From a bacterium (GTDB lineage Bacteria; Zhuqueibacterota; Zhuqueibacteria; Oceanimicrobiales; Oceanimicrobiaceae), in contig JBHHXN010000129.1 of assembly GCA_046757025.1 (NCBI GenBank), forward strand, positions 1 through 14,940: a stretch of 14,940 bases of DNA. Direction: 5' to 3'. The position numbers and the translations under genes are program-made. The notes below the pieces were generated by a model, which made no database searches, had not been told where the DNA came from, and was given only the letters and a program-made list of their open reading frames with translations. This document shows positions 3,911 to 12,761 of the stretch, in pieces (the first letter of the stretch is position 1; the number at the start of each line of letters is the position of its first letter).

Positions 3911-6265
3911 CTATTTCAAAAATAACATTTTGCGAGAAATGGTCACTTTTTCAGTCTGAATCTGGTAAATATACAAACCGCTGGCCACGATTTCGCCAAC
4001 CTCGTTTTGGCCGTTCCATTGAATGGCATAATTTCCTGCGTTCTGATTTTCGGACACCAGTTTACGAATTTTTTCTCCAAGAATATTAAAAACACTTAGC
4101 TCTACTCGACCCGGTTTGGCCAAATCGTAGCGAATGGTAGTGATGGGGTTGAACGGATTGGGGTGGTTTTGATACAAAATAAATTCAGTGGGCACGGCTT
4201 CGCTAACGGGTCCGACGCCAGTGGCAAGGGGCGGCAGCTCAAAATCGAAAACCATTTCAGAACCGTAGGGCAAGTTGAAAGTCTGCGTGGCCGATTTGTA
4301 ATCCGGAGCGCCCACTTCCAGCGTGATGTTTTCCTCGCTGTCCAATTTGCTGGCGGCCAGGTAGCGAAATGTGTAGCGGCCGCCATTCTGAACAAATTGC
4401 GAAAATCCGCGTTCAGTTGATTTCACCAAAATGTTCTGGATGGGTTGTTTGGTGACGGAGTCCAGCACGTGACCTTTGATGACCGCCACTGGAAAAGTTT
4501 GCGACAAACTGGTGTTAATGGTGAATCGGCCGTCCACCGACACTTCGAAATAATCTTCCCAGGCTTTGCGGAATGCGGCAATTTTATCGAGATCGCTCTG
4601 AGGGGGGGCGCCGCCGTTTTGGGTGACCAGAATAAAGGCCTGGCGCAGGTCTTTTTGCACATCCGCTTCTGCAGGGAGGCGTGGGCCTTCCGCTGCGATG
4701 ATGGCCTCGATGGTCACCTCCACGGCGGTACCCGTGGCGGTGCTGCCTCGAACGGGCGTGCCCAGCGCGCGTCTGTCAGGAAGATTGTTGGTGGCGCTGC
4801 TGACAAAAATTCTGGGAGCGACTTCTTCGGGGGTGCGCAAACCCATCAAATATTCATCGAGCTCGCTGAAGAAATCGATTTGTGTCGGGGTAGTGAAAGT
4901 GTTGTCGGACAAAGGCTGCCAGTTGCCCCCTTCCAGCGAAGAATGATCGCTGTCGAAAAAGTAGCTCCAGTGCGCGTCGGCGCGCCCGAGGATCAGGTTG
5001 CTTTTGTTGCCATCGGCATCGATGAAGTTGACGAACGCGCCCCAGCGGTGCCCGGCTTCCTGTCCCATGATGGTTAAAAAATTGTTCTCTCCCCGAAAAA
5101 AGCGCTGTTTGGGATTGGCCGGCCAGGCGTCTAACTGGTTCATGTTGCAGCGGCTTTCCAGCACCCCGTTGCTGCCAAACAAACCGCTGTCATCGGAGAT
5201 TCGCACACCGATGCCTTGCGCGCTGTTTTTGATGGTGACTTCGTTGGCAAATCCCAACAAAGTTTGCGGGAAGTTGGTGAAGAAAATAAATTGAAAAAAA
5301 CTGTCCGGAAAAGTTCGATAAAAATTTTGCATCAGTGCGACGTCGTTCACCATGGGTTGGGTGATGTTCATATAGTTTTCAAACAGGCCCGTGTGCGCGG
5401 CGCTGCTGAATGGCAGATCGTCAGAGAAGCTGATGGTTTCCAGGTGTGCCGTGCCGCCTGGATGGATGCCAAAAGTAATGGGCGTACCGGTGGCGGCAAT
5501 TTTAGCGTCGATGCCGTTAAACGTGACGTCAAAGGAGCCATCGGCACGCAAAACCAATTGCAACGTGTTGGAATTGACAATTTCAAATTCCCGCACATTA
5601 TTCCAGGTAAGGGTCGTTTTGTTGGATTCGCTTTTTTGAAAAACGCCGCCCTGCTGCGCAGGATTGAGATCCAGAAAATAGGCGGCAATTTTGGGCGTTT
5701 CACTCAAAAAATCGTTGTTGTCATAAAAGCCACCGGGGTTCACATCCGCGCCGAAACTGACGATGCCGTTGGCGTTTACGTGCACATCGCTCCAAGCCAC
5801 GCCGAAGTAATTAAAAGTAAATGACAGGTTGACGGTGGCGTTTTCATCATCTCCTAACAACAAGTTGGTCCCCAGGTCGGAATCAAAATTGAATGGCACC
5901 GCAGTGATATCGTAACCGCCACCGACCGGCACAAAATGAAAAGTATGCTGGTCGGTATCAAAGGGATTGATGCCGCTGATGAGAATGGAGCCGTCATCTT
6001 CGGCTACCCAGACGTCATCAAACACAAACGAGCTGGCAGATAGTCGCTCCGATTTCTTTTTTGTGGATTGGTAGCGGTAGTAATTCCACAGATTTTCTTT
6101 TTCGTTGCCGCGGTAAGTTCCACACTCGAATTGCTGCGTAGCAGTCAGGCTGTGAGTATGGCGTTGGGGTTTAAAGGGATGATTTTTGCTTTGTATCTCA
6201 TTGATTCCTGAAAACAAGGTGATTGCAAAAAAGATAGTAAATTGAAGTGTTTTACGAGTAAGCAT
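3911..6265 (-). CDS. Secreted 784-aa protein: NIDO-like domain, metzincin-like domain with QExxH, carboxypeptidase-regulatory-like beta-sandwich, and T9SS/FlgD-type C-terminal domain
   Basis: Signal-like N-terminus; NIDO-like FTFNYFG...VNANGIVSFG...IAAYFLDLNP...NTLQLVL; MGQEAGHRWG...AHWS...YLMG; IKGHVLDSVTKQPI...YTF; YQNHPNPFNPITTIRY...RKMLFLK. Confidence 0.8.
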   Translation of the reverse strand: MLTRKTLQFTIFFAITLFSGINEIQSKNHPFKPQRHTHSLTATQQFECGTYRGNEKENLWNYYRYQSTKKKSERLSASSFVFDDVWVAEDDGSILISGINPFDTDQHTFHFVPVGGGYDITAVPFNFDSDLGTNLLLGDDENATVNLSFTFNYFGVAWSDVHVNANGIVSFGADVNPGGFYDNNDFLSETPKIAAYFLDLNPAQQGGVFQKSESNKTTLTWNNVREFEIVNSNTLQLVLRADGSFDVTFNGIDAKIAATGTPITFGIHPGGTAHLETISFSDDLPFSSAAHTGLFENYMNITQPMVNDVALMQNFYRTFPDSFFQFIFFTNFPQTLLGFANEVTIKNSAQGIGVRISDDSGLFGSNGVLESRCNMNQLDAWPANPKQRFFRGENNFLTIMGQEAGHRWGAFVNFIDADGNKSNLILGRADAHWSYFFDSDHSSLEGGNWQPLSDNTFTTPTQIDFFSELDEYLMGLRTPEEVAPRIFVSSATNNLPDRRALGTPVRGSTATGTAVEVTIEAIIAAEGPRLPAEADVQKDLRQAFILVTQNGGAPPQSDLDKIAAFRKAWEDYFEVSVDGRFTINTSLSQTFPVAVIKGHVLDSVTKQPIQNILVKSTERGFSQFVQNGGRYTFRYLAASKLDSEENITLEVGAPDYKSATQTFNLPYGSEMVFDFELPPLATGVGPVSEAVPTEFILYQNHPNPFNPITTIRYDLAKPGRVELSVFNILGEKIRKLVSENQNAGNYAIQWNGQNEVGEIVASGLYIYQIQTEKVTISRKMLFLK

Positions 6266-6518: not shown

Positions 6519-9419
6519 CTATTTCAGTAAAAGTAATTTGCGCGATTGCACAAACTCACCGGCTTGAAACAGCAAAATATACATACCGCTTGCAACCGCC
6601 GTTCCGGCGTCATTATTCCCTGACCACTGGATGGTATGTGCACCAGCTATTTTTTTCTCATCAACCAGCGTGCGAATTTTTTGTCCTCGTAAATTGTAAA
6701 TAACTAATTGCACATGGCGGTCTCGGGCAATTTCATAGCGGATGGTAGTGGCAGGATTGAAGGGATTAGGGTAGTTTTGATTCAGATAAAATCGTACAGG
6801 ATGGACTGGTGTCGGCTCTTCAACGGCGGTGGGAAACAGTTTATTCCACAGCGCTCGGGCGGTGTCGGCATTAGCCTGTAAATCGCTCAAATTTTCTCCC
6901 GCCAGCAGCGCAAAACCGATTTCCACGCTTTGGTCGGCAGGCAGTGAATAGGGGCCGGCGCCGATCACAAAGGCGATATCGGCCGGGCCCATGCGCGTGA
7001 CCTGAACCCCGCCGCTGATGGTTTGCCATTTTTCGTTATCGGTAAAACCGTCATCGGTGCCGAAAAAACTGGCTCCGTTGTCGATGGCTCGATACGATAC
7101 GCCACCGTCGCTCAAAACCGACATGCCAACGTAGGTGCCGGGCGCGTTGCCGCTGGTACCAAATGCGTAGCCCAATTTGCGCGCGTGGTCATAATCGGCA
7201 ACATTGGTGGCATAATTTTTTTCATCGATATCCCAGTCGAAAAAGATGCCAAAATGGAAATTGTTCAAAACGTTTAAGCCCGAATTCTCAATGGTAAAAC
7301 GGAAGAAGATGAAATCGTCGTTGGGCGGGGCAGTCATGGCGAAGGTTTCCTGTTTGATGCGAATATTCATGGGTAGCGTCGCTTTGGAGTCGTTAAAGAT
7401 GCCGATGCTTTCGTGATCCGTTCGGGTACCGGGAATGATTAGCTGCAAGTCGCCGCCGTCCACGATGGCAAAATCGTCGTCACTATTTGTTCGACTGCGG
7501 GCCGCGTTGGAGATCTGGCTCTGGCTGGCGCCGGCGATGATAGCGCCCTCGTACAGCAAATTGCCGCCGTTTTTAAACGTGAAACCCATGCCGCTGTCTG
7601 TGCTGTTGTCGGGATCGGCAAACCCGATGCGCCCGACGTTAGTGATGGTTACGCCGATGTTGTTGACCTCGATGTTTTTAAATATGGGCAAAATGGTTAA
7701 GGTGAAATGATCCAAATCCTGATACTTTCCAGCGGTCAGCTCGAGATTGAAAACGACCTGGCGCCCACCTGGCGCCCCACTGGCAACCGTGAAAATAAAA
7801 GGCGTGGAAAGCGTGATTTCGTTGTTTGAATTGATGGCTGAAATGATCTGAGTCGGGTTGGTTACGTTGACAAAATTATCGTTTTCGGTTAAAGTTAAAT
7901 TCAAGTTAGAAACACTGGTTAAATAATTTTTCAATTTGAGTGTGACCTCGACGGTTTCGCCGGGCTCAATGACGCCATCGTCGTCGCTGTCGCTGAACTG
8001 CAAGTCCGTTATGCGTACGGAAGGCGAATTTTGGGTGACGGCTTGCAAGGCGTTCACCCGCCCTTTCCCGAGCAAACCGGCGAAATTGGGATTGAGCTGG
8101 TCGATGTTGTCTGCGGTAACCCGTACCTGTTCCGCTACTTGATTTCCCGACCAATTCGGGTGCTGAGTTTTAACCAGTGCCGCCACTCCCGACACAATGG
8201 GTGTGGAAAAAGACGTGCCGCTGAACGAGCCGTAACGGCCGTTGTGCAGGGTGCTGAAAATAAATCTACCGGGCGCGGAGATATCCACGTCGGTGCCGTA
8301 ATTTGAGTTGAAATCTTTTAAGTCGCTGTTGTTGGTCATGGCCACGGAAAGGACGTTTTTGTATGAGGCTGGCAGTGCAGATGCCAATCGCCCGTCGTTA
8401 CCAGCCGCGGCGATGATGGCGGCGCCGCTGGCTGCAGTTAGATTGATGATATCCTGTTCAAAGGCGGAAGGACTTCCCAGGCGCGACCAGCTCAGGTTGA
8501 TGACGTCCGCGCCGTTGTCCGCAGCATAGAGGATGCCTTCGTATCCGAAATCTACAACGAGGTCCTGCACGGCATTGGAAGCGTTGATGGGCATGATTTT
8601 CGCATTCCAGCTTGTGCCTGCTACCCCGGTGACGTTATTGCTCACCGCACCCACCAGTCCGGCGGAGTGACTGCCGTGGTTGGCGCTTTGCGGTGTGGCG
8701 TCCAGACCCGAGGGGTCGTTGCTGTTGTTGGCAAAGTTCCAGCCCTGTACGTCATCCACAAAACCGTTGTCGTCATCATCTATGCCATTGCCGGCGATTT
8801 CCTTTGCGTTGCGCCAGATATTGGCCGCTAAATCGGAATGATCGATGTCGGTGCCGCCATCGACGATGGCAACGACGACGCTGCCCTGTTCGCCCTTTAC
8901 AACATTCCAGGCCTGCTCTGCCTGAATCACCGCATAAAAAGTCTGCTGGCTAAAAAGCGTGTCGTTGGGTGTGGCGGTCAAACGGTGCCGGTAAAGCGGC
9001 TCGGCATATTCCACTGCAGGGTGCTGGCGCAGGGCTTGCGCCACCGCCTGCGGGGGTTGGCTGCCGGTAAAATACGCATAATAAAGACTGGCAAGGGAGC
9101 GGGAAGATTTGATTTTCGCAAGAACATGGCGCGGGCGGTAAACTTGCTGCAACTGAGTAATTTTTTGAATTCGCAACAGTTGATCAAATGTGGCCAAACC
9201 GGTTGCAAACGCGGTTTTGCCAAACGTGCGGCCCTCTTTGAATTTGATAACAATTTTATTGGGAATGGTTTGCGCGTCATGGTTTGATAGCTTTTGGTGA
9301 CTGCTTTTTTTTGTTTTGAAAGCGAACAGCTCATCTAATTGCCATCCCGCCACAAATAAAAAGCCCAATGAAATAAATATTACAAACGGTGTTTTAAACC
9401 TTACCTTCATGACCGTCAT
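6519..9419 (-). CDS. Secreted S8 (subtilisin-family) serine peptidase with T9SS/FlgD-type C-terminal domain, 966 aa
   Basis: Intact triad: VAIVDGG (Asp), NHGSHSAG (His), GTSFSTP (Ser), with oxyanion AAAGND. Also a prodomain ending VEYAEP, the NGIDDDDNGFVDD loop, and QNYPNPFNP...RKLLLLK. An alternative start exists at ATG 9410. Confidence 0.95.
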   Translation of the reverse strand: MTVMKVRFKTPFVIFISLGFLFVAGWQLDELFAFKTKKSSHQKLSNHDAQTIPNKIVIKFKEGRTFGKTAFATGLATFDQLLRIQKITQLQQVYRPRHVLAKIKSSRSLASLYYAYFTGSQPPQAVAQALRQHPAVEYAEPLYRHRLTATPNDTLFSQQTFYAVIQAEQAWNVVKGEQGSVVVAIVDGGTDIDHSDLAANIWRNAKEIAGNGIDDDDNGFVDDVQGWNFANNSNDPSGLDATPQSANHGSHSAGLVGAVSNNVTGVAGTSWNAKIMPINASNAVQDLVVDFGYEGILYAADNGADVINLSWSRLGSPSAFEQDIINLTAASGAAIIAAAGNDGRLASALPASYKNVLSVAMTNNSDLKDFNSNYGTDVDISAPGRFIFSTLHNGRYGSFSGTSFSTPIVSGVAALVKTQHPNWSGNQVAEQVRVTADNIDQLNPNFAGLLGKGRVNALQAVTQNSPSVRITDLQFSDSDDDGVIEPGETVEVTLKLKNYLTSVSNLNLTLTENDNFVNVTNPTQIISAINSNNEITLSTPFIFTVASGAPGGRQVVFNLELTAGKYQDLDHFTLTILPIFKNIEVNNIGVTITNVGRIGFADPDNSTDSGMGFTFKNGGNLLYEGAIIAGASQSQISNAARSRTNSDDDFAIVDGGDLQLIIPGTRTDHESIGIFNDSKATLPMNIRIKQETFAMTAPPNDDFIFFRFTIENSGLNVLNNFHFGIFFDWDIDEKNYATNVADYDHARKLGYAFGTSGNAPGTYVGMSVLSDGGVSYRAIDNGASFFGTDDGFTDNEKWQTISGGVQVTRMGPADIAFVIGAGPYSLPADQSVEIGFALLAGENLSDLQANADTARALWNKLFPTAVEEPTPVHPVRFYLNQNYPNPFNPATTIRYEIARDRHVQLVIYNLRGQKIRTLVDEKKIAGAHTIQWSGNNDAGTAVASGMYILLFQAGEFVQSRKLLLLK

Positions 9420-9646: not shown

Positions 9647-9761
9647 AGACCGGGTTGAACTTCTTGTCATTTACTCAAGTTTCGCAATTGTGTAATCAAT
9701 TGTTTCTAAGTTATTTTTCTTAACATGAATTCACATAATTCGTAACTATTCAGCACAGAGC

Positions 9762-9789
9762 TGTCATTCCTGCGAATGCAGGAATCTCC
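9762..9789 (+). repeat. TGTCA-type REP-like hairpin, left copy
   Basis: TGTC-ATTCCTGC-GAAT-GCAGGAAT-CTCC; matches the reverse complement of 10164-10191 at 25/28. Confidence 0.85.
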
Positions 9790-9801
9790 TCTGGCTTCCA
9801 T

Positions 9802-10089
9802 TTAAACTAGTTCAGCGTACGAGTCTTTCCATTCTGGATTTATTTCTCCAATGACATTCGCTTTGTATTCCCGCTGCCATTTTTTCATGCTTTTTTCCTG
9901 AGTGATAGCGGCAGTAAAATCTTATGTTTGTTGAAACCACACCAGCTGGTGGCAAGGGTATTTTTTTGTAAAGCCATGGCTCAATTCCCTTTTGTGCTCA
10001 TAAACACGTCGAATAAGATTGTTCGTTACACCGAAGTAAAGCACATTGTTATGTTTGTTTGCCATCATGTACACGTTGTATGTTTCCAC
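9802..10089 (-). pseudogene. Small stand-alone GIY-YIG nuclease (about 95 aa) with one in-frame TAA at 9922-9924
   Basis: GTG 10089 follows a GAGGA Shine-Dalgarno-like sequence. Translation: METYNVYMMANKHNNVLYFGVTNNLIRRVYEHKRELSHGFTKKYPCHQLVWFQQT*DFTAAITQEKSMKKWQREYKANVIGEINPEWKDSYAELV*. The VY...LYxG, RRxxEH, FTxKY, AIxxEK.xKxW and NPEW motifs continue in frame past the stop. Confidence 0.88.
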
Positions 10090-10163
10090 AATTCCTCTAC
10101 CTGAACCTGTTTTTACTTGATTGAACGCTATGAATTCTTTTCTCACTTATTTACATTGAATCG

Positions 10164-10191
10164 GGAGACTCCTGCATGCGCAGGAGTGACA
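10164..10191 (-). repeat. TGTCA-type REP-like hairpin, right copy (inverted)
   Basis: Reverse complement reads TGTC-ACTCCTGC-GCAT-GCAGGAGT-CTCC. Confidence 0.85.
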
Positions 10192-10354
10192 CCTGAATAG
10201 TTACCATAATTCTTTATAACAACTATCGTTACAAATATTCCAAAATTTTACAATGTAACCATTTATTTAAGAAGTCATTCTAAATCGATCTTTTGATTCA
10301 ATATTAAAAGGCCATTTGCTACAGAACAATTAACTCTAAAATAAAAACTTTGCT

Positions 10355-10447
10355 TTTAACGCAGAGGCCTCTGAGAGCGCAGAGAGTTTCGCAGAACGAT
10401 ATTTTTTTCTCTGCGCAGCTCTGCGCCATTGGCGCCTCTGCGTTAAA
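10355..10447. repeat. Long palindromic repeat built from CGCAGA(G) / CTCTGCG units
   Basis: Perfect outer 14-bp inverted repeat TTTAACGCAGAGGC (10355-10368) / GCCTCTGCGTTAAA (10434-10447). Three CGCAGA units face three CTCTGCG units. Confidence 0.8.
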
Positions 10448-10503
10448 TAAAATGGTTAGAATGTTTATATAACGACTCAATCACCCTGATTTTGGAATAT
10501 TAA

Positions 10504-10648
10504 TGCTCCTGTTGATTAAGTCCATTTTCCCATCAATCTTCATGCTGAGCGGAGTCGAAGCATGATGAAAAAACAACAGGTTACGGCCATTCCCAAATTT
10601 ACTTCGGGATTCAGCCAGAATGTTTCTTCGACTTTATCAACAGAGTCA
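10504..10648. mobile_element. About 145-bp MITE-like element flanked by TTAA (or ATTAAT), containing a REP-like hairpin
   Basis: Imperfect inverted ends TGCTCCTGTTGATTAAGTC and GACTTTATCAACAGAGTCA. TTAA at 10500-10503 and 10649-10652. Internal palindrome TCATGCTGAGCGGAGTCGAAGCATGA (10540-10565). The right part is repeated at 2411-2471. Confidence 0.65.
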
Positions 10649-10742
10649 TTAATGTAACATCTTTAATATTAATTTCTGAAATACGAATTCATCAGCTTGA
10701 CCTTATTTGTTTTTGTTTCTATTATCTAAGTACGAGATTGAG

Positions 10743-12761
10743 TCATTTGGCCGTAACCGCTTCTCCGGTTAAATATTTTTCGAACCAGCCGCGCAAATAC
10801 AGAATCTGCTGGATCTTGCTGGTGGGGTGCCGGCGGCCGATACCGTGAAACTCATCTGCGATGCGCACCATGGCGGTTTCAATCTTGCGCAATTTCAACG
10901 CGCGATAATACTGTTCCGTCTGCTCCATGGGGGTGCGCAAATCTTTTTCGCCGGTCAGCAGTAAAGTCGGGGTTTTGACATTTCCCACATACATCAGTGA
11001 AGAGCGGCGCAGGTGTTCCGCCGGATCTTCCCACGGCAGTTTTTTGAAATTGTAGTACCAGCTGCTGCCGTCGGTGGTGCCCACAAAACTGAACCAGTTG
11101 GTGACGGGTTTCATCACCACGGCGGCCGCAAAGCGTTCGGTATGGCCTACGATCCAGGAGGTGAGCACGCCGCCGCCGCTGCCGCCGCAAACAAAAAGCT
11201 GGCTTTCATCGATATAGCCGCGCTTCAGTATTTCATCCACGCCTTTCATCAGGTCGATGTAATCCGGGCCGGGATAATTATTTTTAATGGCGTTGCCAAA
11301 CGCCTGGCCATAACCGCTGCTGCCGCGGGGATTGGTGTACAACACCACAAATCCGTTGGCGGCATGATTCTGAAACTCAAAGTTGAAGCGCACACTGTAC
11401 ATGGCGTGCGGGCCGCCGTGAATGTACAGAATCAGCGGATATTTTTTCTGTGCATCGAAATCCGGCGGTTTCACGATCCAGCCCTGAATGCGTACCCCCT
11501 CCGCCGAATCATACCAGATTTCTTCCACCTCGCCCAATTTTCGATCTTCCAACAAATCGTCGTTTACCGCCGTGAGTTGTTTCGGTGTGGGATGCTTGCG
11601 CGAGAAAGTGACCAGATCGCCGGGCTGATGATAGCCGGCAAGCACCGCGGCTATCTGGCCTTTTTTGCCGATAAAAGGTGAAGATATGTAGTGGCTGCCC
11701 CTGGTAACCTGGATGATTTTACCACTTTTCAGCGAAACAAAGTGCAGGTTTCTGGCGCCGCGATCCTGGTAAGTAAAAAACAAACCTGAACCGTCAGCTG
11801 CCCACTGCACCGACGATGGCCGCCGATCCAGCTCAGCGGTTAACGAACGCTTATGGCTGCCGTCGAGATTCATAACATACAATTGGCTGACGATGTAAGT
11901 GTCGTCGGTGCGGTCATAACCAGTATAGGCGATCATTTTGCCGCCTGGAGAAACCACGGGATTGTAATCCGGGCCTTCGCGGTCGGTCAGAGCCGTAATG
12001 GCGCCCTCTTCCAGCGTCACCAGGTAGATTTCGGATTCCCGCCACTGCCAGTCCCATTCCGGCTCTCGCAATCCGCTGAAAACAAGGCCTTTGCCATCGG
12101 CAGTCCATTTTGGCGCGCCGTCGTTGAAATCGCCAAAGGTCACCTGACGCGGTGTGCCACCAGAAGAAGGAATCACATAAATGTGTCGAAAGCCATCGGC
12201 GTTGTAACCGCGGCCATCTCGGCGGTAGTTCAAGCGGTCGATCACCCGCGCAGGTTGGCTCCATTTGGCGCCTCGCGGCTTTTTGGGCATTTTCACCCGC
12301 CAGGATTTTTCCGCGGGACCGATCATGTTAAACGCAATCTTTTTACCATCTGGCGACCACTGGATATTACTGGGAGAATTTTCCAATCTGGTTAACTGGC
12401 TGCTCTCGCTGCTGTCCATCCAGCGCACATAAATTTGGGAGCCGGTCGGTTCGCCTTTGGCCGTATAAAGCAAACGCTGACCATCCGGCGACCATTTTGG
12501 TGAGGCGCCTTTTAACAGGAAACGGTCTTTGCTGCCATCGATATTCATGATCCAGATCTCGCTCGAATATTTATCGTTCACTTTGTCGGTCCAGCGTTTA
12601 GTGTAAACGATTTGTTTGCCATCGGGTGAAAGCTGGGGGTTTGAAACCGATTCCCATTCCAGGAACAGGTCCACGGTGAGTTTGTCATTAGGCTGCGCTT
12701 GCAACGCAATAGTGAAAAGCAGCCAAAAACTCCAAATTAATACAAGCGTTCTGCGTTTCAT
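10743..12761 (-). CDS. Secreted S9 family peptidase (dipeptidyl/acylaminoacyl peptidase type) with PD40/TolB-like beta-propeller, about 672 aa
   Basis: SPDG repeats, YIHGGPH, NPRGSSGYG, nucleophile motif GGSGGG, DLRTP (Asp) and EFHGI (His). Start placed at ATG 12761 (MKRRTLVLIWSFWLLFTIALQA signal peptide, AAGGA upstream) rather than 12821. Confidence 0.93.
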   Translation of the reverse strand: MKRRTLVLIWSFWLLFTIALQAQPNDKLTVDLFLEWESVSNPQLSPDGKQIVYTKRWTDKVNDKYSSEIWIMNIDGSKDRFLLKGASPKWSPDGQRLLYTAKGEPTGSQIYVRWMDSSESSQLTRLENSPSNIQWSPDGKKIAFNMIGPAEKSWRVKMPKKPRGAKWSQPARVIDRLNYRRDGRGYNADGFRHIYVIPSSGGTPRQVTFGDFNDGAPKWTADGKGLVFSGLREPEWDWQWRESEIYLVTLEEGAITALTDREGPDYNPVVSPGGKMIAYTGYDRTDDTYIVSQLYVMNLDGSHKRSLTAELDRRPSSVQWAADGSGLFFTYQDRGARNLHFVSLKSGKIIQVTRGSHYISSPFIGKKGQIAAVLAGYHQPGDLVTFSRKHPTPKQLTAVNDDLLEDRKLGEVEEIWYDSAEGVRIQGWIVKPPDFDAQKKYPLILYIHGGPHAMYSVRFNFEFQNHAANGFVVLYTNPRGSSGYGQAFGNAIKNNYPGPDYIDLMKGVDEILKRGYIDESQLFVCGGSGGGVLTSWIVGHTERFAAAVVMKPVTNWFSFVGTTDGSSWYYNFKKLPWEDPAEHLRRSSLMYVGNVKTPTLLLTGEKDLRTPMEQTEQYYRALKLRKIETAMVRIADEFHGIGRRHPTSKIQQILYLRGWFEKYLTGEAVTAK

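Follow-up and report, generated by a model that had tools for sequence, protein, structure and literature searches.

The stretch of DNA analysed here (the window, 14,940 nucleotides in length) contains a 463-bp cassette that lacks a transposase and in which a GIY-YIG gene lies between two tagged hairpins, with 12-bp ends outside them, and this cassette was very probably inserted in the window by an IS66 transposase of the ISBst12 group acting in trans. The original prediction had proposed a mobile cassette moved in trans; this proposal is supported by ends identical to those of ISBst12-type elements, by 8-bp duplications and by empty paralogous sites, and it is from these that we infer the insertion event.

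Read from the sequence, the outermost elements are two copies of the target duplication CATAATTC, at 9734..9741 and 10205..10212 (both on the + strand). They are followed inwards by 12-bp terminal inverted repeats, GTAACTATTCAG at 9742..9753 (+), which is identical to the ends of ISBst12-group IS66 elements with a single ORF, and its perfect inverse at 10193..10204 (-). Spacers of 8 nt on the left (9754-9761) and 1 nt on the right (10192) separate these repeats from two TGTC-tagged hairpins of the SRM/NTS-like, CGTC-REP type. The left hairpin (9762..9789, +) agrees with the NTS consensus at 22 of 28 positions and has one compensatory pair; the right one (10164..10191, -), with its tag outermost, agrees at 20 of 28 positions and has two compensatory pairs. 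Folded as DNA, the two gave z scores of -3.6 and -3.9 against shuffled sequences. The nested, symmetric layout of duplications, 12-mers, TGTCA hairpins and spacers that the original prediction had described was recovered base for base.

The cassette is located in a 1.3-kb intergenic region, with a subtilase gene on one side and an S9 peptidase gene on the other, and is inserted within a MITE-like host repeat to which it is unrelated (9673..10743, no strand assigned; ACTCAAGTTTCGCA ends). The host repeat is usually about 430-445 bp long, and its right end is degenerate in the window; its ACTCAAGTTTCGCA-ended family has 11 paired copies and 117 end matches with at most 2 mismatches in the window's genome, the assembly of which comprises 5.96 Mb in 374 contigs and is 94.8% complete. 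The junction is spanned by 19 aligned paralogues of the host repeat, all of which have the target as a single copy, in eight of them exactly as CATAATTC. Thus the empty alleles that had been suggested as a check were found, in the form of paralogous sites of the same genome. An orthologous empty allele of the window locus was seen neither in 30 relatives nor in four metagenome runs, the latter being represented by contigs only, so that a missing allele there says nothing about its absence.

Several other features surround the insertion. The host repeat holds an internal GC-rich hairpin (10355-10447), and there is overlap between its right end and the S9 peptidase stop codon. It also contains a second insert of about 143 bp (approximately 10505-10647) with inverted ends of the GACTCTGTTGAT(T/A)AAGTC type, of which the genome has nine paired copies, making the intergenic region a set of three nested elements. 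The window also encodes two large proteins that carry FlgD-Ig and secretion-tail domains and are probably secreted; that at 6519-9419 is the subtilase, and that at 3911-6265 had no further Pfam match.

The 12-bp ends are not confined to this locus. The exact 12-mer GTAACTATTCAG occurs 35 times in the 5.96-Mb assembly, where 0.9 occurrences would be expected, and so is not there by chance. Pairing of near-exact ends gave 34 elements of 54-1697 bp, and an 8-bp duplication was perfect at eight of these pairs and within one mismatch at 18 of the 34, compared with 2 of 578 shifted controls. For other duplication lengths, allowing one mismatch, 4-6 pairs were found at lengths of 4-7 and none at 9-11. 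Further end-pairs with 8-bp duplications had been named as a test of the idea, and their presence across the family, together with the empty paralogous sites, bears out the claim that a real transposition event had taken place. The cassette itself is present in about a dozen copies in the window's genome, whole, deleted or truncated, with internal deletions in many; the copy closest to that of the window (C28, 97%) is without a duplication, 6 of the 8 positions being mismatched. Other cargo found between the same ends includes hairpin-only elements of 123-186 bp, remnants of a four-helix-bundle gene (TIGR02436) and a GxxExxY-like remnant that scored below the cut-off, and elements of only 54-62 bp also exist. 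Being short and without a transposase, with IS ends and with copies dispersed in large number, the cassette has the characteristics of MITEs and non-autonomous derivatives, and it represents one kind of cargo among several in a large family of MITEs. The longest of the elements (G000:C51:10051-11747; 1697 bp, with a perfect 8-bp duplication) carries an open frame of 288 codons with a T5orf172 domain within a split four-helix-bundle remnant, and this frame is a candidate intact passenger gene.

The gene carried by the cassette (9802..10089, - strand) is of the Ssn type, a single-domain GIY-YIG gene of 95 codons plus stop, with a GTG start behind AGAGGA. Its 5′ part (9925-10083) matched PF01541 at 1.8e-9, in agreement with the GIY-YIG gene of the original prediction, but an in-frame TAA at codon 56 (9924-9922), ahead of the predicted metal-binding Glu65, had been overlooked, and the window copy is broken. 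The stop is common to five of the seven aligned copies that cover codon 56 (the other four that bear it are 86-97% identical to the window's), and hence the cassette can spread without an intact gene. Read through, with X at the stop, the gene gave 49 homologues, with identities reaching 86% and a length of 95 aa. One homologue of the cargo protein, at 71%, carries the label candidate division KSB1, near which the window's genome may tentatively be placed. The spacing of Tyr7, Tyr18 and Glu65, the last of which falls after the stop in the window copy, equals that of Tyr6, Tyr17 and Glu64 of SsnA, which are the residues mutated by Chenal et al. (PMC11893778, in the part of the article available), and among 18 aligned sequences Y18 and E65 are invariant and Y7 nearly so. 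The Ssn-type label is given on the basis of length, of this spacing relative to the published SsnA residues and of the hairpins; no solved structure matched an intact homologue (P0002). Elsewhere in the window's genome, an intact Ssn-like gene (G000:C173:9612-9878; a 57% match to P0002) lies among many tagged hairpins, without these ends, and might be a source of nuclease activity in this genome.

Ssn nucleases associated with NTS/SRM hairpins have been described by Chenal et al. (2025; PMC11893778, available part), and the cassette is like them in having a gene for a single-domain GIY-YIG protein of about 95 aa between two tagged hairpins. It differs from them in that its hairpins, with a variant stem, do not conform to the strict SRM pattern, in that the window gene is broken and in that the module has IS66 ends and a duplication around it, neither of which is described in the available part of that article. 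The strict published SRM pattern had no match in the window, where both hairpins fail it; in the window's genome it had 94 matches, only one of which adjoins this end. Among 80 homologue loci the strict pattern missed 35, and the window's stem variant was present at 17. The hairpins have likewise the properties of CGTC-tagged REP repeats (Di Nocera et al., 2013; PMC3733652, available part), that is, a CGTC or TGTC tag, a stem of 8-9 bp, a loop of 4-5 nt and pairing in opposite orientation, those of the window being an oppositely oriented pair with a TGTC tag, an 8-bp stem and a 4-nt loop. Such repeats have no dedicated transposase according to the available part of that article, whereas in the present case ISBst12-type ends enclose a subset of them: 24 of the 211 tagged hairpins in the window's genome adjoin a GTAACTATTCAG-type end. 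A further 36 of the 211 follow TAGTGTCCATCCGTAAAG and 18 follow TTTGA(A/C)CGAAAA, flanks which resemble the ends of other MITE families.

The association of gene and hairpins extends well beyond the cassette. At those homologue loci where each flank comprised 200 nt or more, tagged hairpins flanked the gene on both sides at 48 of 66 metagenome loci and 12 of 25 phylum loci (window included), and at none of 2000 random controls. The 12-bp ends were found near none of the Ssn homologues at 80 metagenome loci, in a count of close matches only (the filter missed a right end with 2 mismatches in the related genome G131). Thus the module is common and is normally free of these ends. These observations bear on the idea that mobilisation is due to the Ssn nuclease, with the hairpin-gene-hairpin unit moving itself and the IS-like ends being incidental. 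Chenal et al. suggest, in the available part of PMC11893778, that NTS-ssnA-NTS resembles a mobile element, and the metagenome loci with hairpins on both sides and without these ends are in keeping with this, as are two copies of the interior that stand behind other, MITE-like flanks in the window's genome (C111:17573 and C332:55). However, the duplication adjoins the 12-mers and not the tags, and its length is that of IS66. Moreover, copies in which the gene is broken or deleted, and elements with unrelated cargo, have the same ends and duplications, and cleavage by SsnA is confined to single-stranded DNA close to the tag, strand transfer being unreported in the available part of PMC11893778. 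Self-mobilisation is therefore largely refuted for the window insertion, and we give it hardly any credence.

Insertion by an ISBst12-group transposase requires an enzyme that recognises these ends, and an element with a closely matching pair was found in a genome of the same family as the window's (G013). This element (L017) is a single-ORF IS66 of 1658 bp with an exact left end and one mismatch in the right end, and its 505-aa product (P0001) scores as an IS66 transposase (NF033517, PF03050). Among the best 80 of 250 P0001-homologous loci examined, at least one end was present within 2 mismatches at 76, both ends at 45 and both exactly at 32. A perfect 8-bp duplication was present at 22 of 41 testable transposase loci, in eight genomes, with 14 of the 22 coming from one of them. 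Close homologues of P0001 were found in 7 of 167 phylum genomes, and three of their newly fetched loci had both ends. The assignment of the ends to IS66 in the original prediction therefore holds, given the 32 of 80 loci at which both are exact, but the expectation of a tnpABC element does not, since these are single-ORF members of the ISBst12 group. As a separate point, the right ends of about eight autonomous elements were inspected by eye for a GTC tag just inside the end, and what was seen resembled chance.

Transposition has been observed for ISDge4, a member of the ISBst12 group whose ends are GTGACTACTCAGCA/GTAACTGCTCAGCA and which has an 8-bp repeat (PMC12898284, available part), and the cassette is like it in its GTAACT-type 12-bp ends and its 8-bp duplication. 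Intact ISBst12-type relatives have ends identical to the cassette's and one ORF, whereas the cassette is without a transposase, is only 463 bp long and has an unrelated module as its interior; it is a non-autonomous IS66 derivative and not an IS. Such a derivative might have arisen by deletion if a tIS66, an autonomous IS66 with a passenger gene, had once contained ssn. Elements of the tIS66 type are known, making up 7 of 25 Pseudomonas IS66 (PMC12888890), but the 45 autonomous loci with both ends (from the best 80 of 250) are about 1.5-1.76 kb long and are filled by the transposase, and the interior of the cassette, where the GIY-YIG gene alone was seen, shows no apparent trace of a transposase. 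We consider this origin very unlikely.

The transposase was sought closer to the window as well. The window's assembly had no PF03050 match, and a search with P0001 gave one N-terminal IS66 fragment, at a contig end and with no such 12-bp end nearby. In five MITE-rich relatives, no cognate transposase was found in four (G007, G136, G140 and G068), and the fifth (G131) had only distant matches of 25-26%. Thus an IS66 transposase sharing these ends, the search for which the original prediction had put forward, exists in the form of L017 but outside the window's assembly. The window's DNA is held by three runs (X1, X2 and X4), which are hydrothermal-vent metagenomes from one study, and the L017 element is present in two of the three. 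In X1 it showed no difference and forms a stand-alone contig of 1.66 kb, the element's own length; in X4 it showed no difference over 1557 bases; and it is absent from X2. A transposase of the L017 type thus belongs to the same community and is probably encoded by a different organism or subpopulation, because X2 contains the window's DNA without the element.

The composite of module and ends is shared with other genomes. The same cassette junctions are present in G131 and G136, which belong to two further families of the same class (f6 and f12), at about 80-83% identity, and the other two matches among the 167 genomes searched were to the gene only. Four copies in G136 have perfect 8-bp duplications, and derivatives of 61-62 bp consisting of end, hairpin and end exist. 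In G131, where the contig starts inside the gene, the frame is open from residue 10 up to the stop, and the sequence continues to the right end, which has 2 mismatches; a full-length intact gene with both ends was not seen in these genomes. The window gene and that of G131 differ at 22.5 of 48 synonymous and 21.5 of 192 non-synonymous sites (dN/dS 0.17; Fisher p 5e-7), and the ratio was 0.15-0.28 against G136 and 0.37-0.78 among copies in the window's genome, all of these values being based on 45-94 codons with small counts and open to mimicry of a low ratio by hairpin-to-hairpin gene swapping. From these ratios we infer that, between lineages, the gene probably retained its function inside the ends and that it decayed in the window's genome. 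In G136 (L230-L237, L275), eight gene copies stop matching after residue 49, and the inspected copies have a further hairpin-dimer element there.

An end followed by a YGTCAY tag within 12 nt was found in 19 of the 167 phylum genomes (with one control match) and in 3 of 40 genomes picked for the transposase, including one 148-bp hairpin-dimer element with a perfect duplication. In viral contigs the end-plus-hairpin arrangement had no match. The 3.2-Mb assembly of G007 contains 138 ends of the exact type, many of them around hairpin-dimer elements of 124-138 bp. The many different spacers between end and tag in the 19 genomes could reflect two events, in which a minimal IS66 MITE came first and an Ssn module later entered it, so that the composite never moved as a unit; the existence of the 54-62-bp elements and the frequency of nested insertions in the window's genome would also fit. 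Against this, the same two junctions occur in three genomes at numerous sites that are unrelated to one another and that have separate duplications. These shared junctions refute the two-event scheme for the window copy, and we regard it as highly improbable, although as the origin of the cassette family it may apply.

Under insertion in trans, a hairpin-ssn-hairpin module, of a kind common without these ends, would have come to lie between two of them. The transposase would bind and pair both 12-mers, cut at their tips and insert the unit with an 8-bp staggered cut. The gene would have been under purifying selection as the cassette spread between families of the class, and in the window's lineage it would then have been inactivated, the unit continuing to multiply while becoming reduced to hairpin MITEs that lack the gene. 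In this process the nuclease is a passenger. By analogy with SsnA, the predicted cutting sites of an intact cassette nuclease are in single-stranded DNA, a few bases to the 5′ side of each tag; at the right end the predicted cut would fall within the terminal repeat, and it may be speculated that such a cut favours broken copies.

Mobile insertion cassettes, such as MIC231, consist of IS ends around a passenger gene and depend on a transposase from elsewhere. The cassette is like them in having IS ends around a passenger gene, which is broken in the window copy, and would likewise depend on an outside transposase; it differs in that its IS66 ends are cut to 12 bp and in that the passenger is a repeat-associated nuclease module. 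Mobile insertion cassettes and MITEs are both named in the available part of PMC6542083. Already described, as far as the available parts of the sources go, are therefore the Ssn/SRM modules (PMC11893778), the CGTC REPs (PMC3733652), the ISBst12 elements, MITEs and mobile insertion cassettes; what seems to be new is the join between them. The full-text literature, with coverage that leaves out most subscription journals, yielded no description of an IS66-ended Ssn cassette. The original prediction knew of no description of the combination, of which the module of nuclease and palindromes had been reported by Chenal et al. (PMC11893778, available part).

These results reveal neither a new enzyme nor a new mechanism, and they concern a minority of such hairpins even in the window's genome (24 of 211). 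They do suggest that 12 bp per end may suffice for a transposase of the ISBst12 group, a little-studied group for which a matched transposase (P0001) and mini-element are now in hand. Whether ISBst12-type transposases are a real vehicle for Ssn/SRM modules, their ends having captured a working module, carried it in functional form between families and spawned gene-less hairpin-dimer MITEs, seems to us about evenly balanced. If they are, the spread of CGTC repeats would be explained in part. A bolder extension, proposed because modules adjoin at least three kinds of repeat end in the window's genome, is that the modules might land next to IS ends on purpose. In the available parts of the earlier articles the mobility of Ssn modules is only hypothesised (PMC11893778) and the repeats are without a dedicated transposase (PMC3733652); the join described here offers a concrete and testable route by which Ssn nucleases and CGTC/SRM hairpins may spread.
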